Source of the DNA: a virus
Lineage: Duplodnaviria > Heunggongvirae > Uroviricota > Caudoviricetes
Direction: 5' to 3' (one strand)
Virus record (IMG/VR): IMGVR_UViG_2718218452_000003
Length of the DNA: 35,148 nt
The notes under the pieces were generated by a model that saw only the letters and a list, made by a program, of their open reading frames with translations, was not told where the DNA came from and ran no database searches. The stretch's first letter is position 1, and every line of letters begins with the position of its first letter. Position numbers and translations under genes: made by a program. Below, piece by piece: positions 2,432 through 31,391 of this stretch.

Positions 2432-4465
2432 ATGAGTTATTTACCAATAGAAAAAATAGAACAACTAAGAATTGGAACTGTTGAGTTTGTATCACCTAAT
2501 GAAATTAGGGTGTCTTTAGAGATTGATTCTCCTGATTCAGTATCACTTCAAGGTGGGGCGCCTCGTAATTTTCCTAGAATAAATAGTTATATTTTAATCC
2601 GTAGTGATGACGGGTTTCTTGTTGGGCAAGTTGAGTGGATTGCAATAGAAAACTCGCCATATCCCAAAAGAAGAGGCTTACAAGATTTTGGGTTGATAGA
2701 CCTTCCTTTCCCACTTAAAAAGCTCAGTATCAATCCAGTTGGTACATTGAGAGTTGATAGAAAAAACGAAGGTTTCAGGTTCACGAGAGGAACTGATGCT
2801 TTCCCTTCGGTTGGTGACTCTGTGCTTTTGCCTACTGACCGACAATTACAATCAATAATTGAATCAGGTGATAATAGAAGGGTAAAAATAGGGGATAGCC
2901 CCCTAGCTAACAATGCTGAAATAAAAGTAGACCCCGATAGACTTTTCGGACGACATATAGCTGTTTTAGGTAATACGGGTAGTGGTAAATCATGTTCGGT
3001 GGCCGGCTTAATTCAATGGTCTCTTGATGCTGTTTTACAACAGGGAAAATCTCCAAATGCTCGATTTATAATACTTGATCCGAACGGAGAATATAGTAGA
3101 GCTTTAGGGCCAGAATCAAGATATAAGGGTAAACTATTACGTGTAGAGGCTAACATCGATGTCGGAGAGATGGATCTTAAAGTACCTTCATGGTTATGGA
3201 ATAGTTCTGAGTGGGCTGCTTTCACTCAAGCAAGTTCAAAGGTGCAACTTCCTTTACTACGTCGTGCTTTGAGGGCAATGAGGAATAATCTTCTATCAGA
3301 AGATGATGTGAAAATTCAAGCCAAACGCTTTTGCGGTATCCTTCTTGTATCTATGAGACAGCAGGCAAGTCAAGGTCAGATATATGTGAATAGTGGATCT
3401 GCTAAAGGTTTGGTTGAAACTTTGGGTTCTTGGAGAGATAGTATTTCTATCTTAAACGAGAGAATTGTTGATAAATCGCTCGATAAGCTAATAAACACAA
3501 TAAATACGTATCTTTCTTCACGAAGTGGATCTTCTTGGCCAGCAAAGCCTGTTGTTTCCGAGATTGAGTTGTTGATTAATGGATTTAGAGATGCATATAC
3601 AGCTCTAGGGGGAGATGAACAAGAACTTCTTCCAAAAAGCGAAGATGCGCCTATGCGTTTTAAAGGCGATGATTTTGTCGCATATCTCGAAGCTCTGGCT
3701 CAAGAAACAGGTACAGAACAATTCGTGGAGTTTCTTTTGACTCGTATTCGAACAATGCTAGGTGACACTCGTATTAGTGCAGTAACCAATGATTCTGTAA
3801 AGCCTATAAGTTTAACTAATTGGTTAGACACTTTTCTCGGTAAAAATGAACAAGGATCTATAACTGTTATAGATTTATCTCTAGTACCAAATGAAATAAT
3901 TCATTTGGTAACAGCTGTAATTTCTAGGGTGGCTTTTGAAGCACTACAACGTTATCGAAGATTAAATGGAAGGCCGCTACCAACAGTTTTAGTTGCAGAA
4001 GAAGCGCATACGTTTATTAAACGTTACAAGGAAGATAGTGAAACTCAGTCAGTCTCTGATATATGTTGCAAGGTGTTTGAAAAGATTGCACGGGAAGGAA
4101 GAAAGTTTGGGCTAGGCCTTGTTGTTTCTTCCCAAAGGCCATCAGAGCTATCTCCGACGGTTTTATCTCAATGTAATACTTTTTTGTTGCACAGGATTAG
4201 TAATGATAGAGATCAAGAGCAAGTACATAGACTTGTTCCAGATAATATGAGAGGGCTGTTGAGAGAGCTGCCATCGTTACCATCTAGGCATGCTATTTTA
4301 CTTGGATGGGCTTCAGAACTTCCTGTTTTAGTTAGAATGAAAGAGCTTACTGAAAAACAACGACCGCAATCTGATGATCCTGATTTTTGGGATGTGTGGT
4401 CTGGCACTACAAAAGAACCTCGGAAAGTTAATTGGCAACAGATAGCTGATGATTGGCAAAGTTGA
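2432..4465 (+). CDS. HerA/FtsK-like P-loop ATPase, partner of the SIR2 protein
   Basis: Walker A VLGNTGSGKS (DNA 2969..2992), Walker B-like LVAEEAHTF and an SQRPSE motif, with an N-terminal barrel-like region. GAGG lies 8 nt upstream of ATG 2432; an alternative ATG at 2426 overlaps the SIR2 stop, suggesting translational coupling. Confidence 0.75.
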   Translation: MSYLPIEKIEQLRIGTVEFVSPNEIRVSLEIDSPDSVSLQGGAPRNFPRINSYILIRSDDGFLVGQVEWIAIENSPYPKRRGLQDFGLIDLPFPLKKLSINPVGTLRVDRKNEGFRFTRGTDAFPSVGDSVLLPTDRQLQSIIESGDNRRVKIGDSPLANNAEIKVDPDRLFGRHIAVLGNTGSGKSCSVAGLIQWSLDAVLQQGKSPNARFIILDPNGEYSRALGPESRYKGKLLRVEANIDVGEMDLKVPSWLWNSSEWAAFTQASSKVQLPLLRRALRAMRNNLLSEDDVKIQAKRFCGILLVSMRQQASQGQIYVNSGSAKGLVETLGSWRDSISILNERIVDKSLDKLINTINTYLSSRSGSSWPAKPVVSEIELLINGFRDAYTALGGDEQELLPKSEDAPMRFKGDDFVAYLEALAQETGTEQFVEFLLTRIRTMLGDTRISAVTNDSVKPISLTNWLDTFLGKNEQGSITVIDLSLVPNEIIHLVTAVISRVAFEALQRYRRLNGRPLPTVLVAEEAHTFIKRYKEDSETQSVSDICCKVFEKIAREGRKFGLGLVVSSQRPSELSPTVLSQCNTFLLHRISNDRDQEQVHRLVPDNMRGLLRELPSLPSRHAILLGWASELPVLVRMKELTEKQRPQSDDPDFWDVWSGTTKEPRKVNWQQIADDWQS

Positions 4466-11554: not shown

Positions 11555-12094
11555 TTATTCTGGTTGATCAGGGAACGTAACGGGTAATTCAGTGGTATCA
11601 GTGGTCTCAACTTGTTGCACGTACCGCATCCAGCGCATCAGTTGTTGCTTATCTGAATCACTGATAATCCCTAATGCAAGCTGGGTCTGCCAGAACTGCG
11701 TTTTTTCTCTGGCCTGCTGTAATAACCTTTGTTTCTGGTTTTCAGCCTGCAAGCGTTGCTCTTCTTCGGTATACACACGTTTAATGACTGAGCCATCTTT
11801 AAACATCCAGTTACCTGAAATATCAGCGCGTCGGTTTGCTGTAATATTAGGCAACTCGACAACACTTTTTCCTTCCGGGCAAATTGCAGTTACATCCGTT
11901 TGCACGTCGCATATGACATTATTTTCATCATATGCAATCTTTATGGTGTCTGGCTGAAAGTTCTTTTGTTCCTCATACCAGTTTTTACCATCTTCAGCGA
12001 ATAACCAGACAACGCCGGAGTTTTTAGTTAACAGGTACTGTTCTTTTGTTTTTGGATTGCCCGGTTTTATATTTTTTAAATGCATCATAATCAA
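11555..12094 (-). CDS. G: Tail fibre assembly protein G
   Basis: 179 aa immediately downstream of, and overlapping, the tail fibre gene. C-terminal region is typical of Tfa chaperones. Confidence 0.8.
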   Translation of the reverse strand: MIMMHLKNIKPGNPKTKEQYLLTKNSGVVWLFAEDGKNWYEEQKNFQPDTIKIAYDENNVICDVQTDVTAICPEGKSVVELPNITANRRADISGNWMFKDGSVIKRVYTEEEQRLQAENQKQRLLQQAREKTQFWQTQLALGIISDSDKQQLMRWMRYVQQVETTDTTELPVTFPDQPE

Positions 12095-17149: not shown

Positions 17150-17600
17150 CCCACGTCACATCCTGGAATACATGCGACCAGTCGCCTTCGGAAGATGGCA
17201 GGCGGGGTTTTGGCTCAGGCAGGTGTTCTGCCTGCGGTGTGCCCTGACTGCTGCGCGTGATGCGAACGCGTTCCCGCAGGGGGAGCGTAAACAGGAGATC
17301 GGCGCTGTCATCGTCATTGATAACGGCGGAGAATTTGATGTCCTGATTACGCTCCGGATTGAGCAACAACTGTGGCTGATTTTCGGATAACCACGCCAGT
17401 AGCGGCAGCGTGAGGTCGTCCAGCTCCCCGGCGTAATCCATGACAAACATCACCATCTGATAGCGGTAAACAAACGAGGGCGTTTCTCCGGTCGTTTCAA
17501 TGTTGCCGCTCTCCACGAAAATGGTGAATTTTTCCGGGTTGGCCTGACACCATCGGCATGAACGGGTCATGGCTTCACGCAGGGAATCAGTTTTCAGCAT
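17133..17600 (-). CDS. R: Tail completion protein R
   Basis: 155 aa; same size and position as P2 gpR after the lysis genes. Confidence 0.8.
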   Translation of the reverse strand: MLKTDSLREAMTRSCRWCQANPEKFTIFVESGNIETTGETPSFVYRYQMVMFVMDYAGELDDLTLPLLAWLSENQPQLLLNPERNQDIKFSAVINDDDSADLLFTLPLRERVRITRSSQGTPQAEHLPEPKPRLPSSEGDWSHVFQDVTWGESDG

Positions 17601-17877
17601 GGTTGTTATCCTCGTTGTTCAGTCGTTGCAGCCTGCGCTGTTCCAGTAATTCAATGGCCCGTTTATCCGCGTTACAGGTTTCCAGTGCATCCAGAAGGCG
17701 GTCGCCCCATATACCGAGATTTCCCCATGTGGGAGTATCAGGGAAGGGGGGAGGCGTTACCGGTATGGTCAGCGTCTGCGGTATAAGCCGGACTGACGGC
17801 GCTGTCCGTGGCGCGTTCTGCGTGCCTGCGCAGCCTGTCAGTAAAACGAGCGTCAGGCAAAGCGTGGGCGCATTCAT
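17587..17877 (-). CDS. lysC: o-spanin (LysC/Rz1-like outer-membrane lipoprotein)
   Basis: Signal peptide and lipobox LLTGC followed by a proline-rich segment. Its 5' part overlaps the 3' end of the i-spanin gene in another frame. Confidence 0.65.
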   Translation of the reverse strand: MNAPTLCLTLVLLTGCAGTQNAPRTAPSVRLIPQTLTIPVTPPPFPDTPTWGNLGIWGDRLLDALETCNADKRAIELLEQRRLQRLNNEDNNHAEN

Positions 17878-18145
17878 CTTTTGCAATATCGTTGCGTAGC
17901 TGTTCACGTCTTACCTCTCCGTCCTGATTGCGTTGCTGATTTTCCACGCGGAGTTGCGCCAGCACCTGCTGCATATCCTGTACCCCGGCGCTGATGATAT
18001 TCAGGGTGTCGGCGGTACTTTTCAGGGTGCTGGCCTGCGCTTCGTTTCTGGCGTTCTCCCGGCCCAGCGACCACGACAGACGCATGGATGTTCCCCATCC
18101 GGCAATCAGAAGGAAAGCGACGCCAAGCGTGGGCCAGAGCTTCAT
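17738..18145 (-). CDS. lysB: i-spanin (LysB/Rz-like)
   Basis: Start at ATG 18145: MKLWPTLGVAFLLIAGW is an N-terminal TM anchor, followed by a coiled-coil periplasmic domain. Start overlaps the endolysin stop. Confidence 0.7.
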   Translation of the reverse strand: MKLWPTLGVAFLLIAGWGTSMRLSWSLGRENARNEAQASTLKSTADTLNIISAGVQDMQQVLAQLRVENQQRNQDGEVRREQLRNDIAKDECAHALPDARFTDRLRRHAERATDSAVSPAYTADADHTGNASPLP

Positions 18146-18534
18146 GCCGGATAGGCTCCGTGTGGTAACTGAAAATGCGGTCCGTCTTTCAGAGTCTTCC
18201 AGTCGCCTCCCCATTCCACCGGAATATTCAGTTCCCGGCTGGCCTGTCTGAATGCTGCTGCGATTTTTTCGTACAGCGGCCATTCCCATGACACCTGGCT
18301 GCCGATATAAGCCACAACATCCACGGCATGTCCCGTAAGGTGGCGGCTGTTCATGGTCTGGCTCTTACCCGTGGCCACCAGTTGCTTCTGGCGGTAACGG
18401 CTGCGCAACCCTTCGGTGATACCAAAATCCACTTCCGAGATTTCCAGTGCCCGTCGGGTCACTTTCACCAGATCAGGATTTACGCCCTGCAAATTCTTTT
18501 CGCTCCGGCTGCTGAATTTAAATGTGTTGCTCAT
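18142..18534 (-). CDS. Endolysin, peptidase M15-type (L-alanyl-D-glutamate peptidase-like)
   Basis: 130 aa with SRHLTGHAVDV and a later W...E/D region typical of M15 zinc peptidase endolysins. GGAG RBS; start overlaps the holin stop (ATGA). Confidence 0.7.
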   Translation of the reverse strand: MSNTFKFSSRSEKNLQGVNPDLVKVTRRALEISEVDFGITEGLRSRYRQKQLVATGKSQTMNSRHLTGHAVDVVAYIGSQVSWEWPLYEKIAAAFRQASRELNIPVEWGGDWKTLKDGPHFQLPHGAYPA

Positions 18535-22565: not shown

Positions 22566-24317
22566 ATGATTCAGGACGCTTTTGTGCGCCAGCGTGCGCG
22601 ACAACTTTACTGGCAGGGTTATCCGCCCGCAGAAATATCACGTCTGATGGGAATAAACCCGAACACGATTTATGCGTGGAAAAAACGCGACCAGTGGGAT
22701 GAAACGCCACCCGTGCAGCGTGTCACGCAGTCCATCGATGCGCGCCTCATCCAGCTCACTGAAAAACAGAATAAAACAGGTGGTGACTTCAAGGAAATAG
22801 ACCTGCTGACCCGGCAGCTTAAAAAACTGCATGATGGCCAGCCGGATGCGACGGCCACAGGGAAGAAAGGCCGGGCGAAAAAACTCAAAAATCATTTCAC
22901 GCCGGAACAGATTGCCGCACTGCGGGAAAAAATCATCAGCAGGCTGGAGTGGCATCAGCGGGGCTGGTTTGACTCCCTGACCCTTTGCAGGGAAGCCGGG
23001 ATACGTAACAGGATGATCCTGAAATCCCGACAGATTGGGGCGACCTGGTATTTTGCACAGGAAGCACTGCTGATGGCGCTGCGTGACGATGTGGCGCAAC
23101 CTTACCAGCGTAACCAGATTTTTTTGTCTGCGTCGCGTCGTCAGGCGTTCCAGTTTAAAAGCATTATTCAGAAGGCTGCGGCTGAAGTTGATGTGGAGCT
23201 GAAAGGGGGCGATAAAATCATCCTCTCCAACGGCGCAGAGCTGCATTTTCTCGGCACTTCTGCTGCGTCGGCGCAGTCCTATACGGGCAATTTTTATTTT
23301 GATGAATTTTTCTGGGTCAGTCGCTTTGCTGAACTGCGCAAGGTGGCTGGCGCTATGGCAACCCTCAGCGGACTGCGGCGCACCTACTTCTCCACGCCAT
23401 CCACCGAAACGCACGAAGCATACGCCTACTGGAACGGCGACCGCTGGAACGAGAAAAAGGCCACGCATAAACGCCAGCGTTTTTCTGTGGACTGGAAAAC
23501 GCTGCATAACGGGCTTATCTGCCCTGACCGGATGTGGCGGCAAATTGTCACGCTGGAAGATGTGGTTAATCACGGCTGGAAACACACCGATATCGACGAA
23601 ATTCGTGATGAATACACCGAAGACGAGTTCCTCAATCTCTATATGTGTGAGTTTGTCCGCGAAGGGGAATCGGCATTTAACCTGAATATCCTGATTGGCT
23701 GCGGTGTTGACGGATACGACGACTGGAAAGACTGGAAACCTTTTGCTCCCCGCCCGATGGGGAATCGTCCGGTATGGATTGGGTATGACGCAAACGGCAG
23801 CAGTGGCAACGGCGACAGCGGCGCTGTGTCCGTGGTGGTTCCTCCGGCTGTTCCTGGTGGCCGTTTTCGAACGGTGGAGACGCGACGCGTTCAGGGGCTG
23901 GAGTTTGAAGAACAGGCCAGAGTCATTGAAGATTTCACGTATCGCTACAACGTGGAACACATCGGCATTGATGTGACGGGCGGGAACGGGGAGGCTGTTT
24001 ATCAGATAGTGAAACGGTTTTTCCCTGCCGCTATTCCGTACACCTTCACGCTGTCATCAAAACGGTCGCTGGTACTGAAAATGCTGCAAATAATGCGTGC
24101 CGGGCGGTGGGAATACGATCGCGCCGAACGCGAGCTGGTCGCGGCCTTTAACGCCGTGCGTAAGGTGAAAACACCGGGCGGCTTTATCACTTACGAAACG
24201 GACCGCGCGAGGGGGATCAGCCACGGCGACCTTGCGTGGGCAACCATGCTTGCTGTCATTAACGAACCAATTGGCGGCGAAGGAGAAAACGAGCGTTTCA
24301 CGGTTATGGAGTTCTGA
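22566..24317 (+). CDS. P: Terminase ATPase (large) subunit P
   Basis: 583 aa, transcribed divergently from O as in P2. GGGGGA RBS. Confidence 0.9.
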   Translation: MIQDAFVRQRARQLYWQGYPPAEISRLMGINPNTIYAWKKRDQWDETPPVQRVTQSIDARLIQLTEKQNKTGGDFKEIDLLTRQLKKLHDGQPDATATGKKGRAKKLKNHFTPEQIAALREKIISRLEWHQRGWFDSLTLCREAGIRNRMILKSRQIGATWYFAQEALLMALRDDVAQPYQRNQIFLSASRRQAFQFKSIIQKAAAEVDVELKGGDKIILSNGAELHFLGTSAASAQSYTGNFYFDEFFWVSRFAELRKVAGAMATLSGLRRTYFSTPSTETHEAYAYWNGDRWNEKKATHKRQRFSVDWKTLHNGLICPDRMWRQIVTLEDVVNHGWKHTDIDEIRDEYTEDEFLNLYMCEFVREGESAFNLNILIGCGVDGYDDWKDWKPFAPRPMGNRPVWIGYDANGSSGNGDSGAVSVVVPPAVPGGRFRTVETRRVQGLEFEEQARVIEDFTYRYNVEHIGIDVTGGNGEAVYQIVKRFFPAAIPYTFTLSSKRSLVLKMLQIMRAGRWEYDRAERELVAAFNAVRKVKTPGGFITYETDRARGISHGDLAWATMLAVINEPIGGEGENERFTVMEF

Positions 24318-25363
24318 TGAGCAGAAAAAATAAAAAAGTGCGCATGAGTTCACGCATTGATCTCGCTGATGCACTCAGGAAAGAATCGTCGCTCAGTGCA
24401 TTCACTTTTGATGGTCCTTATCGCCTGACCGGGCATGATTTGCTGGACAATATGTACTGTGCTGATAACGGGCGGTGGTATGAAACCCCGGTAGACTGGT
24501 ACGGTCTGGCAAGAGCTGCCCGGCAAACGTCCTGGCATCAGTCTGCGCTTTACTTTAAGCGCAATGTATTGCTCGGCTGCTATATTCCGCACCCGCTGCT
24601 TTCCCGGCAGGATTTCTCGGCGCTGGCGCTGGACTGGTTTGTGTTCGGTAACGCATTCCTTGAGCTTCGAAGCAATATGCTCGGCGAACCGCTTAAATTA
24701 CGGCACGCCCTGGCGAAATACATGCGACGCGGAAGCGATCTTGAATCATGGTGGTATGTGCAGGATGGCAAGGATGCGTTTCAGTTTCGCCCTGGTAAAG
24801 TGTGCCACCTGATGAATCCTGACATTAACCAGGAAATCTACGGCATGCCGGAATATCTTGGCGCATTACTCTCGGCCAGCCTGTCTCATTCGGCGGACAT
24901 GTTCAGAAAACTGTATTACGACAACGGATCCCACGCCGGGTGCATCATCTACATCGGTGCAGCGCAGGTAAACCGCGAAAGCATGGACTCCCTGAAAGAA
25001 ACGCTACAGGGTGCACGTGGTGGTGGTGCGTTTAAAAACGTGCTCATTCATGCCCCCAACGGTGGCAAAGAGGGGGTGCAAATTTTGCCGTTCCAGCAGA
25101 TCACCGCAAAGGATGAGTTCATGAATGTTAAGGCGGCATCCCGTGATGATGTGCTGGCTGCGCACCGCGTTCCGCCGCAACTGATGGGGGCGATGCCGGG
25201 CGAAAAAAGTGCGTTTGGTGATGTGGAGAAGGCCGCGCGGGTTTACGCAATTAACGAGCTGATGCCCGTCATGGAGGCCATGAAGCATATCAATGACTGG
25301 CTTGGCGAAGAGGTGATCCGATTTAACCCTTACGCACTGCTGGACACCCAGCCCACATCCTGA
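24317..25363 (+). CDS. Q: Portal (capsid) protein Q
   Basis: 348 aa. Start overlaps the P stop (TGATG). Confidence 0.9.
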   Translation: MSRKNKKVRMSSRIDLADALRKESSLSAFTFDGPYRLTGHDLLDNMYCADNGRWYETPVDWYGLARAARQTSWHQSALYFKRNVLLGCYIPHPLLSRQDFSALALDWFVFGNAFLELRSNMLGEPLKLRHALAKYMRRGSDLESWWYVQDGKDAFQFRPGKVCHLMNPDINQEIYGMPEYLGALLSASLSHSADMFRKLYYDNGSHAGCIIYIGAAQVNRESMDSLKETLQGARGGGAFKNVLIHAPNGGKEGVQILPFQQITAKDEFMNVKAASRDDVLAAHRVPPQLMGAMPGEKSAFGDVEKAARVYAINELMPVMEAMKHINDWLGEEVIRFNPYALLDTQPTS

Positions 25364-25887: not shown

Positions 25888-26244
25888 ATGGAAATGAATA
25901 TGAAAACTGTAACTGATGATGAATTTCGTGAGAACCTGAGTGAAATTCTGGATTACCTTTCTTCCGGTGGCAGTGTCGTTATCACGGCGCAGGGAGGGAA
26001 GGATGTTGTTCTTGCTGGTTCTGATCTTAGTCCTGAAATACGGGCTGTCCTTGGCAAAACCAAAAAACTGCGGGATCAAATAAACAAAATGAAGCAACCA
26101 CTCTTAATAAATGCAGTGAGAGATCTGGAAAAACGTCATCCAGCTCTTGTCGCACAGAGAAAAAAAGGATTGTCTTTTGAAGATGCAATGAAGCGTACAA
26201 GAGAAAAACATGCGGATATCATTAAAAAGCTTGAGGATAACTGA
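25888..26244 (+). CDS. Phd/YefM-like antitoxin
   Basis: N-terminal region FRENLSEILDYLSSGGSVVITAQGGKDVVL fits the Phd/YefM fold pattern. Stop overlaps the toxin start by 1 nt. Alternative ATG starts at 25894 and 25900. Confidence 0.6.
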   Translation: MEMNMKTVTDDEFRENLSEILDYLSSGGSVVITAQGGKDVVLAGSDLSPEIRAVLGKTKKLRDQINKMKQPLLINAVRDLEKRHPALVAQRKKGLSFEDAMKRTREKHADIIKKLEDN

Positions 26245-26651
26245 TGGACATAGTGTTTTTGTCAAAAGAACAAGTAGAACGTATCCATGCTGAAACTTTA
26301 CCCCAGAGCGGAAATGCCAATGACGGGCTACTTGAAGGTGCTTTAAATCGCGTCAGGACACTACACTACTATGAAGGGGTTGATGATATTCATGCTCTGG
26401 CTGCTATGTATTTGATTGGTATAGCCAAGGCTCATGCCTTTCATGATGGGAATAAACGCACAGCTTTTCAGGCTGCATCAATATTTTTAATGATGAACTC
26501 TTCCGAACTTTCAAACTCCCTGCTGCTGGTTAAATTAACGGTGTTTTCAGCAATGGGGATAGCTACCCTTGAGGAAGTTACCTTTGCTTTGAAATTGCTG
26601 TCTGATTATGGCAATGAATTAATCAGCGACTACGAAGAAGATTATATTTAA
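26244..26651 (+). CDS. doc: Doc/Fic-family toxin
   Basis: 135 aa with the Doc-type Fic motif HAFHDGNKRTA. Coupled to the upstream antitoxin. AT-rich. Confidence 0.75.
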   Translation: MDIVFLSKEQVERIHAETLPQSGNANDGLLEGALNRVRTLHYYEGVDDIHALAAMYLIGIAKAHAFHDGNKRTAFQAASIFLMMNSSELSNSLLLVKLTVFSAMGIATLEEVTFALKLLSDYGNELISDYEEDYI

Positions 26652-26817: not shown

Positions 26818-27153
26818 TCATTCATGCGTTTTTTCTTCATGGTCTGTCACTTCTCTCCTGATAACTTCATTGCACAAATCAACGCACTCATTGCAGATGT
26901 AAACAGACGGTCCGGCAATCACCTTTGTGACTTCGTACTGGGATTTATTGCAGAAGCTGCAATAAATCGTCTCCTCACCTGAAGTCCATGTTTTGCTGGT
27001 TTCGCCAGACATCAGTTGTTTGAGGTCTTTTTCACGACGAAGAACTATCTGGCCACATTCAGCTATTTTTTGGATGTTGACATTTTCTTCTTTCGCCAGC
27101 GCTTCCATCCGCTCAATCAGTCGCTGCGCTTTTTCTCTGTCAATGCGTTGCAT
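26818..27153 (-). CDS. ClpX-type zinc-finger (C4) domain protein with N-terminal coiled coil
   Basis: C-terminal [35 protein letters not shown] matches the ClpX N-terminal zinc-binding domain (C-x2-C-x18-C-x2-C). No AAA+ module. GGGGG RBS. Confidence 0.7.
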
Positions 27154-27216: not shown

Positions 27217-27528
27217 TTATTCGGGAAATAACGCCCGGATATTTCCAGCCATCTGACTGGTTATCTGTGCGGTTGATACTGGCTGTGACGCGGGGCGTTC
27301 TGTCCTGGTTTGTGTCACTGATAACGCTTCATCATCAGCCCATGCAGCCAGTCGGTAAGCCTCTGCCGGATTCATTTTCAGAAGTGCCAGCCCGGCCAGA
27401 AAAGCCACGCGTTGGCCGCTTTTGCGCGCTTCTGGTGTAAGGCTGTCCAGCCAGGCGCATGCTTCACCTTCGTTCTTGACGGCGGCGGGCTTCAGATAGA
27501 AACTTATCCGTCTGGTTGGTGTCGTCAT
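27217..27528 (-). CDS. parR: ParR-like centromere-binding protein (partner of ParM)
   Basis: 103 aa from ATG 27528, with AAGGAG RBS, directly downstream of the ParM-like gene. Region RRISFYLKP...LDSLTPEARKSGQRVAFLAGLAL resembles R1 ParR / R100 StbB. The track ORF is extended to 27663. Confidence 0.55.
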   Translation of the reverse strand: MTTPTRRISFYLKPAAVKNEGEACAWLDSLTPEARKSGQRVAFLAGLALLKMNPAEAYRLAAWADDEALSVTQTRTERPASQPVSTAQITSQMAGNIRALFPE

Positions 27529-27532
27529 TGGT

Positions 27533-28492
27533 TTACTCCTTGTCCATTGCGTACAGCCCATTAACCAGAGCAAACTGTGGCACCCCGTCCGCGATGAAAG
27601 TCGCATTAACTCCGCAGGCTTCGCGGATAGCGGGTGCCACAATCTCCGCCCCGCCACCGACAACCATCACCCGCCCGTAACCCGAAAAACCCGCCAGCGC
27701 GCGGATCACGCGTTGTTTCAGTGTTTCTTCCTTTTCACGAATAATCGCCATCAGGCTGGCGTAATGCGCGTCATTGTGGATGTGCTGGCGCAGCCAGGCT
27801 TCATTATGGCGATGTTCGATAATGGTATTGGCGATGTGGTGACTGGTGCGCATACCGTTAGTGGCCATCACCGACAGTACGGCATCGGCCATCAGAGAAA
27901 CGCCTACGTGTGGATCGCAAAACACCTGGCTGATACCTGCCAGTTGCCCCTGAACCTTTGCCACATCCAGAGTGGTTCCGCCCAAATCCACAATCAGCAG
28001 GGATTCAAACGGACTCATGTCAGCCAGTGCCTTAAAGCCAGCCGGAATGGATTCAGGCATAACCCGTACGTTACGGATAGTGAATGTTTCGCCGTTCTGG
28101 TACTCCACCGGGCGCATAACGTTCGCTTTTTTGCGGCTGATGTTGGCCATGTCCGGCTGTGCGTTTGTGTCGAAATACTCGCTCAATGGCAGGGTGACAA
28201 CCACATCCACCTCCTGTGGCGTGATGCCTGATTTGACCAGCGCGTGATGAATGGCAATGACATTCACATCGCTGTACTGGTATTGCGTGTCGGTCGTCTG
28301 GACAAAGCGATCGCTGACCGGATCAAAACCATAGCGCACGCCATCAAGCATGTAGTTCGCGGGCTGCGAGCCACCGAACGGCGCAGACCATTCCGACTTG
28401 AAGCTGTTCGGGCTGATGGCGTTGCGGCGTTCGCCGTTCTCAGTCCATGCCAGCTTGATGTTGGTGGAGCCGTCGTCGATACAAATTTTCAT
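27533..28492 (-). CDS. parM: ParM/StbA-like actin-fold partition ATPase
   Basis: 319 aa. MKICIDDGSTNIKLAW, SPNSFK, QYSDVNVIAIHHAL, MPESIPAG, LLIVDLGGTTLD and VMVVGGGAEI follow plasmid R1 ParM blocks. Confidence 0.8.
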   Translation of the reverse strand: MKICIDDGSTNIKLAWTENGERRNAISPNSFKSEWSAPFGGSQPANYMLDGVRYGFDPVSDRFVQTTDTQYQYSDVNVIAIHHALVKSGITPQEVDVVVTLPLSEYFDTNAQPDMANISRKKANVMRPVEYQNGETFTIRNVRVMPESIPAGFKALADMSPFESLLIVDLGGTTLDVAKVQGQLAGISQVFCDPHVGVSLMADAVLSVMATNGMRTSHHIANTIIEHRHNEAWLRQHIHNDAHYASLMAIIREKEETLKQRVIRALAGFSGYGRVMVVGGGAEIVAPAIREACGVNATFIADGVPQFALVNGLYAMDKE

Positions 28493-28523
28493 GTCGCTTT
28501 TCCTTATGTTGATTAATTAATCG

Positions 28524-28635
28524 TTTACAGGATTTTTAAATCCCGCTTTTGCCTGTTTTGTGCGCGCTTCATATATCGCGGCACGTTTTTTGCTCATTTA
28601 TGGGATTTGTGAATCCCGTTTCTGTCTGTTTTTTG
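28524..28635. repeat. Two ~39-bp imperfect direct repeats (28524..28562 and 28597..28635), candidate parC-like centromere or regulatory site
   Basis: TTTACAGGATTTTTAAATCCCGCTTTTGCCTGTTTTGTG versus TTTATGGGATTTGTGAATCCCGTTTCTGTCTGTTTTTTG, about 31 of 39 identical, each with an internal GGATTT/AAATCC inverted repeat. They lie upstream of parM; the second copy overlaps the last codons of gene A. Confidence 0.5.
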
Positions 28636-31391
28636 TTTCCACTGGTCATGCCACCCCGCAGCAGGTCTGCTTTGCGGCTGGCGCGTTCAGTGGTTTCACT
28701 GATTCTCTGTGCGTGCTCTGCGTCGCGGATGGCGCGCAGCATGTCAGAAAGCACGGTAACGGGTGTTTTCATGGTGTTCTGGTCCTGCTGAAGTGTGGAT
28801 GCCAGGCGTGCGGCGGCTTCAGGGTCTGATGCCCCCAGCTGTGCCAGATAGCTGGCGACCGGGTTATGGCGGATCTCCGTGCTGCTTACGCCATGATTAC
28901 GGCTCAGGCGCTGCCAGAGCTGCGTGATTCGGCTGTCCGGGCGGGTATCCGGTTTGCGTACAATTTCAAATCCCTGCGGTGCAATGATGCTGCCGTCAAC
29001 GTACAGACTGCCGCCCCGTAACAGGTGCTGCATCTGTTGTTCACCGATATGCAGGCCGAGAGATTCAGCAGACTCCCGCCATTCTTTAGCGAGTAATTCG
29101 TGGTTATCAGGCAAAGGCCGTGGCTGTTTGCGGCTCTGTGTCCAGCTCTGCATTTCATCGCTGCTGTTTTTTGCCTGTTTGTCACGAAGCGAACGCATCA
29201 GCGCCCGGCGTTCGTGTCGTTTCAGTGAGCGCATCCATTCGTTCACTTCAACGCCATCAGGGAGCTGCGGCCACGGTGCTGGCCGTTCTTCCGGCTGTTC
29301 TGTCCCGTTGTTGTCCGTTTCCTGTACACGGGGACAGTTATTGCCACGAGTCCAAGGGGCGGCAGGGCCGCCCTGAAGGTCAAAACCATTTTCGCGGGCG
29401 CTGTCTTCCGCTTCCGGTTTACGTCTTACCAGCTTCCAGTTATCCGGGTGCGTGCACACACGGGAGGATTCCCCGATGAGTGGTGACCAGATCCCGTAAA
29501 TCTGTACACTCTGTTCGCCGTAATCGTTCAGCTCATCTGCGAGGTCGTAGGCGGTGCGAATCAGGTAGTCTTTGCGTGGAACAAGTACGCCACCCTGTTT
29601 CTCAATGTAGGTGGCAAAACACCCGGCATCAGCGGCAGCGAGTACCGCATCCATTGCGTCATTTTCCAGACGTTGTGGACCTTCCGGGTTGCGGGCCATC
29701 TGACTGGCAAGGCGGCGGAGTTCACGCCATACCTGACGGGAGGGGATACCAAAGAACTGGAACTGGCGGACGCGGTGAAGACGCGCCCAGCCGATGGCGC
29801 GTTCCACGCTCTCGGCCATTGATTTTCCGGTTTCGTGGTCCACGCGTGGCTTGCCCGTTTTCGGGTCGATGCCATCCACGGCGCGGCTGTCCAGGTTCTT
29901 TCCGATGTAGGTGGCGATGTAGCTGGTTGGCGTGCCTTTTGAGCCGTCGACGTACTCCGCTTTAAAACGCGGAGTTATGTCATCGCCCAGCTCGTGGCGG
30001 TCTTCCTGAATGGCAATATCACAGACGTGGGACACGATGGTTTCAATCTCGTCCGGATGTGCAAAGACCATCATATGCCAGTGCACAGTGCCGTCATGGT
30101 GAGGCTCCACCGTGCGGATGCCATACCAGCGAAGACCGTCGCGGTTCAGTTTTTTGCGGACCGCCGCAAAAAACGTGTTAACCAGGTAATCGCTGGAGTC
30201 GCGCATGGTGGCCCCGTTCCATTTGGGATTCGGATGACCGTTCTCCGTTGTTGCGTGGTATTTTGACGGGCAGGTGACAGTCAGAAACACCGCTCTGTCG
30301 CCACGGGCTTCGGCCAGAAATTCCAGCCCCTTCATGGTGGCCATCATTTCTGCCTTACGGTGAACCGGGTTACTTACTCCCGCGTAATACACCGTCTCGA
30401 GATCAATCGTGAACCCGTCTTCATTTTCCAGCATGAAACTTTTCAGGAAATCGCGTGTTTTCTCGTGCTGTGCGCGAAACTCGCTTAACGCGTCCTGGCT
30501 CAGATAGGGTGATGTTTTTCTGGAAACCAGACAGGCGGCGCGGAGTTGTTCTTCTCTCCACTCGCAACGTAACAGCCACAGTTTGCGTTTCCACCATTCC
30601 GCACAGGTCAGGCGAAGGATTGCGCCCGGCAGCAGCTCCGTGTCCGGTTCGTTCCTCCGGTCTTTATCTGTTGTCAGTGCGTCATAATGTGGAGGCATGA
30701 TGTGCAGGTGTAACGCCATGCGGGCCAGCATCTGATACGCCTTCAGCGTTACATCCATGGTCAGTTCGCCATCGGTCGCGCCAAAGCCATCGCAGAGTTT
30801 TTCGAAGGTGCTGCTGAACATCGCCGCCGTCATGGTGGCCAGCGTCTGTATCTGGTGTTTGTTGAGCTGCGGCAGGTAAAGCAAATCGTCCAGGCGTTCG
30901 CGTCCGGCAAGGGAGCGATAACCCGGTGTCAGCCAGTGTCCGTCAGTGCGATCCAGACGTTCGAATATTTTGCGCAGGGTTCCGCGTGCATAGCGTTCCG
31001 CCTGCCAGCTCTTTTTGCCTTTCCGGCGATCGGCTTCCTGTTTTTTGCGCAGGAAGGAGAGGTGGCGAATAAGCGGATCGCGCAGATAGGACGGCAGCAG
31101 GCGCAGCGAGGCCATGGCTTCATCCACCGCGCCGCGTGCCTGTTTTCTGGCGTCTCCTGCCAGTGTGATGGTTTTGTCCTGTTTTTCCTGTGCGTCCAGG
31201 CTTTTATTAATCAGGTTGCCCAGCGGCATGGCGGAGAACGCCGCATCAGCCATTTCCTGGCGGCGCTCGTTCTCTACCCGGTAGGCATCCAGCCAGGAGG
31301 AAAGCGCGGATTCAGGAGCGGGGATCCCCGTTCCTTCACGCCCCACTGCGTGGCGCGGTTGTTGCCAGTCCCTGATGTACTCTGCCGTCAT
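28569..31391 (-). CDS. A: Replication initiation protein A (rolling-circle HUH endonuclease)
   Basis: 940 aa with the HUH-type motif VHWHMMVFAH and conserved gpA blocks. Appears to carry a long C-terminal extension compared with recalled P2 gpA. Confidence 0.85.
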   Translation of the reverse strand: MTAEYIRDWQQPRHAVGREGTGIPAPESALSSWLDAYRVENERRQEMADAAFSAMPLGNLINKSLDAQEKQDKTITLAGDARKQARGAVDEAMASLRLLPSYLRDPLIRHLSFLRKKQEADRRKGKKSWQAERYARGTLRKIFERLDRTDGHWLTPGYRSLAGRERLDDLLYLPQLNKHQIQTLATMTAAMFSSTFEKLCDGFGATDGELTMDVTLKAYQMLARMALHLHIMPPHYDALTTDKDRRNEPDTELLPGAILRLTCAEWWKRKLWLLRCEWREEQLRAACLVSRKTSPYLSQDALSEFRAQHEKTRDFLKSFMLENEDGFTIDLETVYYAGVSNPVHRKAEMMATMKGLEFLAEARGDRAVFLTVTCPSKYHATTENGHPNPKWNGATMRDSSDYLVNTFFAAVRKKLNRDGLRWYGIRTVEPHHDGTVHWHMMVFAHPDEIETIVSHVCDIAIQEDRHELGDDITPRFKAEYVDGSKGTPTSYIATYIGKNLDSRAVDGIDPKTGKPRVDHETGKSMAESVERAIGWARLHRVRQFQFFGIPSRQVWRELRRLASQMARNPEGPQRLENDAMDAVLAAADAGCFATYIEKQGGVLVPRKDYLIRTAYDLADELNDYGEQSVQIYGIWSPLIGESSRVCTHPDNWKLVRRKPEAEDSARENGFDLQGGPAAPWTRGNNCPRVQETDNNGTEQPEERPAPWPQLPDGVEVNEWMRSLKRHERRALMRSLRDKQAKNSSDEMQSWTQSRKQPRPLPDNHELLAKEWRESAESLGLHIGEQQMQHLLRGGSLYVDGSIIAPQGFEIVRKPDTRPDSRITQLWQRLSRNHGVSSTEIRHNPVASYLAQLGASDPEAAARLASTLQQDQNTMKTPVTVLSDMLRAIRDAEHAQRISETTERASRKADLLRGGMTSGNKKQTETGFTNPINEQKTCRDI

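Follow-up and report, generated by a model that had tools for sequence, protein, structure and literature searches.

The gene A–parM–parR locus

The virus record IMGVR_UViG_2718218452_000003, a stretch of 35,148 nucleotides of Caudoviricetes DNA (hereafter the window), carries on its minus strand the two genes of a plasmid-type partition cassette, parM and parR, downstream of the replication gene A (order gene A, parM, parR across positions 27217–31391). This region shows 100% identity to a prophage that is integrated beside btuC in the Escherichia coli C7 chromosome and includes an integrase, a C-type repressor and Cox-type genes, and 97% identity to phage P88 (Peduoviridae, Xuanwuvirus), whose layout is alike; on its sequence, the window is a P88-like (Xuanwuvirus) P2-family prophage. 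Gene A (28569..31391) encodes a P2-type replication initiator endonuclease (gpA) of 940 amino acids (aa; Pfam Phage_GPA, 6e-129), whose counterpart is labelled 'replication endonuclease' in the P88 and E. coli C7 annotation. That the cassette follows gene A and belongs to an integrative phage of the P2 type, as proposed earlier from the sequence alone (hereafter the original prediction), holds. The gene A stop codon lies at 28569–28571, which leaves a gap of 76 nt before the parM start, and the last ~22 codons of the gene overlap the distal of two direct repeats described below.

The parM gene (27533..28492, minus strand) is preceded by a leader with the ribosome-binding site AAGGA (28493..28520; 75% identity to the corresponding leader of a diverged Hafnia phage) and codes for an actin-fold ATPase of 319 aa. 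Its likeness to ParM of plasmid R1 was borne out by Pfam (StbA_N, 4.1e-82; ParM C-terminal domain, 1.6e-67), by a PDB match to R1 ParM (1mwk, E 9.2e-93) and by BLASTP against R100 ParM (47% identity over the full length, E 9e-110). The ATP-binding residues, a point singled out for checking in the original prediction, are in place: DDGSTN (residues 6–11; phosphate-1), E147, DLGGTT (169–174; phosphate-2) and GGGA (279–282) are invariant in an alignment of the window, Hafnia, D6 and R100 proteins, and all R1 ParM nucleotide-binding motifs are retained. Their counterparts in R1 ParM are phosphate 1, the catalytic Glu, phosphate 2, whose Asp corresponds to R1 D170, and the adenosine motif.

Between the window and the Hafnia phage, ParM shows 94% aa identity with a ratio of nonsynonymous to synonymous divergence (dN/dS) of 0.044 at a synonymous divergence (dS) of 0.65, compared with 63% identity and a dN/dS of 0.20 for the neighbouring gpA, and 74% identity and a dN/dS of 0.22 for ParR. 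ParM is under strong purifying selection and under tighter constraint than gpA. Full-length open reading frames (ORFs) were found in 80/80 IMG/VR viral contigs for ParM and in 77/80 for ParR, and the low dN/dS together with the intact ORFs argues that the cassette is no decaying relic. Scans of genomes and viral contigs with ParM yielded near-identical loci only, which served to count intact genes but gave no distant relatives; a search for ParR homologues led to the diverged locus from Hafnia.

The adaptor gene parR (27217..27528, minus strand) begins 4 nt after the parM stop with an ATG at 27528, which is preceded 9 nt upstream by the ribosome-binding site AAGGAG and gives a protein of 103 aa; a mechanical ORF of 148 aa starting from a TTG at 27663 was rejected as parR. 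The product matches the Pfam family Plasmid_stab_B (PF10784, ParR/StbB; 1.6e-24) and is mildly basic (isoelectric point 8.98), in agreement with the suggestion that the small basic protein after ParM resembles ParR; the hidden Markov model searches for ParM/StbA and ParR/StbB suggested at that time were thus positive for both proteins. The cassette combines a ParM-family actin-fold ATPase, intact nucleotide-binding residues and a small ParR adaptor directly downstream, three of the features by which a type II partition system is recognized. In public annotation, RefSeq/PGAP names the products ParM and 'plasmid partitioning/stability family protein', PHROGs holds them in the 'partition protein' families phrog_691 and phrog_2515, and the record of phage D6 notes similarity to P88 StbA.

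An alignment of 84 ParR homologues (97% down to 41% identity; mostly from Escherichia, some from Hafnia and Cronobacter) revealed three zones: an invariant N-terminus (RRISFYLKP..., with R6, R7, I8, F10, Y11, L12, K13 and P14), a hypervariable linker at about residues 67–92, and an invariant C-terminal tail (N96, I97, F101 and P102; consensus NI(R/Q)ALFPE). An AlphaFold2 monomer model of low confidence (pLDDT 58.8), used for the layout of secondary structure only as its Foldseek matches were meaningless, places helices at residues 20–61, disorder at 65–84 and a C-terminal helix at 86–100. While a PDB search with the single ParR sequence gave no match, a profile built from phage ParRs and the R100 and D6 ParR proteins reached ParR of plasmid pB171 (PDB 2JD3; E 1.1e-10, residues 5–76), a likeness that exists by profile only, and by one that itself included R100 and D6 ParR. 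These data support a predicted N-terminal domain of the ribbon-helix-helix type. Among 72,556 plasmids, tblastn with the phage ParR returned copies of the same prophage only, suggesting that this ParR is a phage-specific branch of the family. The three zones correspond to the layout usual for such adaptors, and the conserved tail behind a hypervariable linker would fit a candidate docking peptide for ParM.

ParR was also found to be dimorphic, with two alleles about 52% identical to each other, one of 103 aa (62 contigs) and one of 104 aa (15 contigs) among the 80 viral contigs. The first ~18 codons and the C-terminal NI(R/Q)xxFPE motif are common to both alleles (27217..27474 in the window, codons ~18–103; 2241–2555 in locus L007), and their repeat regions are nearly identical, a pattern that points to putative recombination breakpoints inside parR.

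Two palindromic repeats as a candidate centromere

Two direct repeats of 42 nt each lie between the end of gene A and the parM leader. The distal copy (copy 2, 28594..28635) contains the palindrome GGGATTCACAAATCCC at 28602–28617 and the proximal copy (copy 1, 28521..28562) the palindrome GGGATTTAAAAATCCT at 28529–28544; the 31-nt spacer that separates them (28563..28593) carries the gpA stop codon. All three elements are assigned to the minus strand. The copies are identical at 33/42 positions, a score reached in 0/1000 dinucleotide-preserving shuffles, and are placed 73 bp apart from start to start. Each 16-bp palindrome has the form GGGATT-N4-AATCC(C/T), and the two repeats are the only matches to it in the 35-kb window. 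The two palindrome-bearing repeats of ~39 bp that had been reported upstream of parM are therefore present, although they measure 42 nt and the distal one overlaps the 3' end of gene A instead of being intergenic.

The comparison across genera was the informative one for these elements, as diversity within the 79 near-identical loci was too low to discriminate. Between the window and the Hafnia phage both copy 2 and copy 1 are 83% identical, against 48% for the poorly conserved spacer and 49% for the gpA 3' coding sequence, with the spacing of 73 bp maintained. A TGA within the distal palindrome ends the gpA ORF of the Hafnia phage (913 aa), whereas in the E. coli phages the gene reads through the distal repeat, indicating that the repeats are not conserved on account of protein coding. 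The palindrome arms are kept and the central 4 nt are free to vary. The 3' end of gene A itself (28569..28640 in the window, 3901–3942 in locus L011) is plastic between E. coli and Hafnia phages.

It was considered that the repeats might be no centromere and might serve as RNA or DNA hairpins or as regulatory sites, acting in gpA–parM mRNA processing or translational coupling, as antisense terminators, or as operators for autoregulation by ParR. In line with this, the palindromes fold into hairpins of −7.1 and −8.8 kcal/mol (z of roughly −3 to −4), the plus strand has a T-rich run after each palindrome, one of them flagged as terminator-like, and R1 ParR is also an autorepressor. However, the stems are weak (6 bp, 3 GC pairs), the segment 28300–28900 had no family match in Rfam at E ≤ 1, and compensatory changes in the arms were not seen among the 79 sequences, in 30 of which a T to C polymorphism at arm position 5 of copy 2 would break the pair and is never compensated. 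Conservation moreover exceeds the hairpin in both copies, reaching ~18 nt 5' and ~8 nt 3' of it; the cargo that is possibly transcribed towards the repeats varies among relatives while the repeats persist, and autoregulation and centromere function are compatible in ParMRC systems. We therefore regard a purely regulatory or structural role as rather unlikely; judged by these patterns, a candidate protein-binding site fits the repeats better than an RNA or cruciform structure.

Across the 148-nt segment that spans the repeats, 47% of the sense-strand bases are A and AA/TT recurs with a period of 10–10.5 bp (z 4.2–4.8; 4.2 in the Hafnia phage), and the genuine parC of R100 gave 51% A and z 7.0 by the same measure. 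This composition suggests a wrapped nucleoprotein complex that would extend across about 115–145 bp, as opposed to two isolated sites.

The archetype of type II partition is the ParMRC system of the IncFII plasmids R1 and R100 (StbA/StbB/parC), with which the phage locus shares the order repeats, parM, parR, a ParM with all motifs kept, an A-rich upstream region with ~10.5-bp phasing, and a ParR of the same Pfam family whose N-terminal domain is homologous (34% identity to R100 ParR over 56 aa). The replicon of R1 and R100 is a plasmid, whereas here it is an integrative P2-like phage. Their parC consists of two sets of five direct, A/C-rich 11-bp iterons that flank a promoter; in the phage there are instead two repeats of 42 nt, spaced 73 bp apart and each built around a palindromic core of 16 bp, and this candidate site has no consensus promoter and overlaps the 3' end of gene A. 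Finally, ParR of R100 has 116 aa, and the phage protein of 103 aa possesses a hypervariable linker and ends 33 residues earlier. StbA/StbB of phage D6, a P1-like plasmid prophage, likewise comprise a ParM homologue (47.5% identity) followed by StbB, with iterated repeats upstream; D6 differs in being a 91-kb extrachromosomal plasmid prophage, for which a partition role is obvious, in its repeat motif TCTCA, which is present in several copies, and in its ParR, which is 35% identical over 49 aa.

Distribution, expression and lifestyle

Of 5426 complete E. coli genomes, 1307 (24%) carry the cassette, with up to three related prophages in one genome; 1453 of its 1455 places in these genomes are chromosomal. 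The same gpA type, counted at ≥80% of the query, occurs in 1319 E. coli genomes, so that cassette and this gpA type are almost always found together. Fourteen phage records contain the cassette, including P88, Citrobacter phage phiSM, PhiR44_2, 520873 and 503458, and within the Peduoviridae it is confined to the P88-like lineage. Among 50,697 phage records, the P1-like plasmid prophage D6 was the sole source of a ParM homologue outside this lineage. The order gpA–parM–parR was observed at E. coli, E. albertii, Hafnia and Cronobacter loci and for every diverged ParR homologue examined whose upstream flank was on the contig, one more locus ending within parM. Genomes of Salmonella and E. albertii also contained near-identical ParM loci. 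On the contig NZ_JBQPOM010000071.1, labelled as the Firmicute Vagococcus sp. WN89Y, a ParM locus matches that of the E. coli phage with 97% identity, which is probably due to contamination or to a mislabelled assembly.

Homology of the window to phages phiSM, Chuche and 520873 ends exactly at the parR stop, and the region beyond it holds variable cargo, in the window a ClpX-zinc-finger protein and a Phd/Doc pair. Given this break, parM and parR belong to the backbone that borders a cargo hotspot and are not cargo themselves; the cassette sits next to gene A and is conserved across the P88-like lineage. The suggestion that it might be repurposed cargo is disfavoured by this backbone position, by the tight linkage to the gpA type and by the strong purifying selection.

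A promoter and terminator scan detected neither a sigma-70 consensus promoter nor a sense-strand terminator between gpA and parM, and the repeat hairpins lack a U-tract on the sense strand. A promoter-like sequence seen by eye over copy 1 (TTTAAA-17-ATTAAT) is below the scan threshold and too weak to claim. Since the cassette lies on the same strand as gene A with no consensus promoter or terminator in between, it is most likely co-transcribed with the early replication operon, and would thus most likely be expressed together with this operon and be off in the repressed integrated prophage.

The original prediction had raised the idea of an episomal (phage-plasmid) lifestyle. As facultative phage-plasmids, P88-like phages could persist as low-copy extrachromosomal circles with ParMRC as the maintenance function of that state, as in D6. 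Several observations are in favour of this: the only other ParM-bearing phage among the records searched is the plasmid prophage D6, phiSM has been reported to be spontaneously active (PMC6456863), and PLSDB lists a circular 'plasmid' of 34,461 bp from E. coli Z1323PEC0009 (NZ_CP148288.1) that represents a whole P88-like genome closed across its int/ogr ends. This circle is equally explained by spontaneous excision and replication followed by separate assembly, and the remaining 'plasmid' matches are prophages in very large records or a degraded linear fragment. Apart from two of the 1455 places all are chromosomal, the copy in the window is integrated in C7 together with int, and the three full genomes inspected each have an annotated integrase together with C/Cox regulators. 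In addition, a C-repressed replicon that relies on rolling-circle replication by gpA is not known to support maintenance as a plasmid. A mainly plasmid lifestyle is not supported by these data, and the episome as the normal state is disfavoured; we consider a facultative one unlikely. The degraded fragment, a 26.8-kb 'plasmid' of Shigella boydii, was rejected as an episome, being linear, of prophage origin and ridden with insertion sequences. The circle NZ_CP148288.1 also carries an integrase, Hok/Gef and a Com/methyltransferase pair.

A further explanation is that the cassette is expressed from the prophage for the benefit of the lysogen or in conflict with other elements, either excluding or destabilizing plasmids or superinfecting relatives through ParR/parC incompatibility, or serving in defence. 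The position of the cassette beside a variable P2-family cargo and defence hotspot, occupied here by the Phd/Doc pair and the ClpX-zinc-finger protein, and the presence of up to three related prophages in one genome could be read in this way, as could the phiSM paper (PMC6456863), in which the gene figures solely as a putative 'fitness' factor. Yet neither ParM nor ParR matched a defence model of PADLOC-DB at E ≤ 0.01, the cassette is backbone and not variable cargo, and no promoter consensus was found between gpA and parM. With regard to incompatibility, the phage ParR has no detectable relatives in the plasmids searched beyond copies of the same prophage, and its GGGATT palindromes are unlike the R100 parC iterons, which makes cross-reaction with IncF plasmids unlikely. 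A role of this kind is accordingly quite improbable.

Several neighbouring features were recorded. Next to parR, the variable region opens with a gene (26818..27153, minus strand) for a stand-alone protein of 111 aa that has a ClpX C4 zinc-finger domain as its C-terminal part (Pfam 3.1e-17); it belongs to phrog_6797 (function unknown), has an equivalent in P88, and could interfere with, or mimic, the recognition of ClpX substrates or adaptors. The cargo that separates the portal gene from parR includes, on the plus strand (25888..26651), a pair made up of a Phd/YefM-like antitoxin of 118 aa and a Doc/Fic toxin of 135 aa, the latter with weak PADLOC matches to the candidate systems PDC-S23/PDC-M59B. 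The E. coli C7 record carries RefSeq pseudogene flags for tail protein X (partial, 11760–11957), the portal gene ('frameshifted', 17217–18264) and ash (partial, 24661–24780); as the portal ORF of the window (24317..25363) is intact with 348 aa, the same length as in P88, its flag in C7 is perhaps an annotation artefact. In gpA, ~440 residues follow C-terminal of the Pfam Phage_GPA domain (residues 179–503). A tentative form of the P2 origin (ori) nick-site motif had no match at ≤3 mismatches, a result that allows no conclusion on the position of the ori.

A probable segregation module for free phage circles

Considering the intact ATPase, the adaptor, the conserved repeats and their fixed association with gene A, we think it probable that P88-like P2-family phages possess in their backbone a functional type II (ParMRC-like) DNA-segregation module. 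In the mechanism that we infer, including the binding of ParR to the repeats, its contact with ParM, the timing of expression and the biological role, ParR dimers would bind the two palindrome-bearing 42-nt repeats straddling the end of gene A and would probably spread over the A-rich, helically phased segment of ~115–145 bp. This complex would capture ATP-bound ParM filaments through the conserved C-terminal tail of ParR, and filament growth would push phage DNA circles apart or position them. Expression would take place at the stage of the free circular genome, following infection or excision, and the module would act on such circles, as AlpAC does in the prophage CGP3. The benefit would probably be that phage circles are replicated and distributed efficiently, or that both daughter cells inherit a genome that has yet to integrate. 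The clear homology to plasmid ParM and ParR might suggest an inert relic, a plasmid par cassette that an ancestor acquired in one event and that has since been carried with no function. This is very improbable in view of a ParM better conserved than the essential gpA, ORFs intact in 80/80 and 77/80 loci and cis repeats conserved across genera.

The closest functional analogy is provided by CGP3, an integrated prophage of Corynebacterium glutamicum. There, the actin-like AlpC and the adaptor AlpA are encoded by genes induced early, repeats upstream of the operon are bound, and deletion of alpAC halves circular phage DNA levels (PMC4446434). The AlpC/AlpA/alpS system resembles the phage cassette in having an actin-like ATPase, a co-transcribed DNA-binding adaptor and upstream repeats within an integrated prophage; it differs in that its host belongs to another phylum, its adaptor gene comes first, its site is composed of 24 short TTAAnnG repeats and the prophage is large, cryptic and not P2-like. 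Stabilization or positioning of excised or free circles appears to be the best reading among the three that the original prediction had offered.

Several points weigh against a segregation module of this type. The tail of the phage ParR (NIRALFPE) aligns best with an internal motif of R100 ParR (NILRSLFPKE, residues ~75–84), beyond which R100 ParR runs for another 33 residues. The ParM-binding helix of R100 ParR is located within these extra residues, that is, past the end of the phage protein, and the contact between ParR and ParM may, on this alignment, differ from that of R100 or be missing. Furthermore, only two long repeats are present, which would have to suffice for nucleating a ParR ring, compared with ten 11-bp iterons in R1/R100 parC and multiple TCTCA iterons in D6, and a weak promoter overlapping copy 1, and hence expression in lysogens, is possible. 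P2-type phages without ParMR, such as P2 and 186, do well, and the module is thus dispensable for the family in general. Lastly, a functional study of this ParM/ParR family was not found in the searchable literature (P88, Xuanwuvirus, Peduoviridae, P2-like phages with ParM).

Partition systems are normally an attribute of plasmids, and an integrated prophage is inherited passively. The occurrence of a type II system in a P2-like phage had been called unexpected, a view that needs some qualification in that the cassette is a conserved hallmark of the P88-like lineage, is already annotated and has a precedent in AlpAC of CGP3. What we describe is a phage-borne addition to the type II partition family that stands out by its two-repeat candidate centromere and its replicon context. 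A ParMRC system that is more constrained than the phage's own replication initiator, in a lineage present in 24% of complete E. coli genomes, implies that moving DNA by an actin-type motor has a task on free circles on which selection can act. Pipelines that use ParM or ParR as plasmid markers in plasmid or phage-plasmid calling will mis-score these common prophages.

More tentatively, it is possible that P88-like phages, which about a quarter of sequenced E. coli contain, operate a spindle of actin-like ParM on their own free circles when they infect or are induced, with ParR assembled on a minimal centromere of two sites, one of them reaching into the end of the replication gene. CGP3 of Corynebacterium is the sole experimental precedent, and the phages concerned here (P88, phiSM) are inducible, plaque-forming phages of E. 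coli and Citrobacter, in which genetics and microscopy are easy. If true, they would allow a cytoskeleton that a phage encodes to position its genome to be studied in E. coli with ready genetics or, alternatively, would serve as a model of bet-hedging segregation of unintegrated genomes before the decision between lysis and lysogeny.

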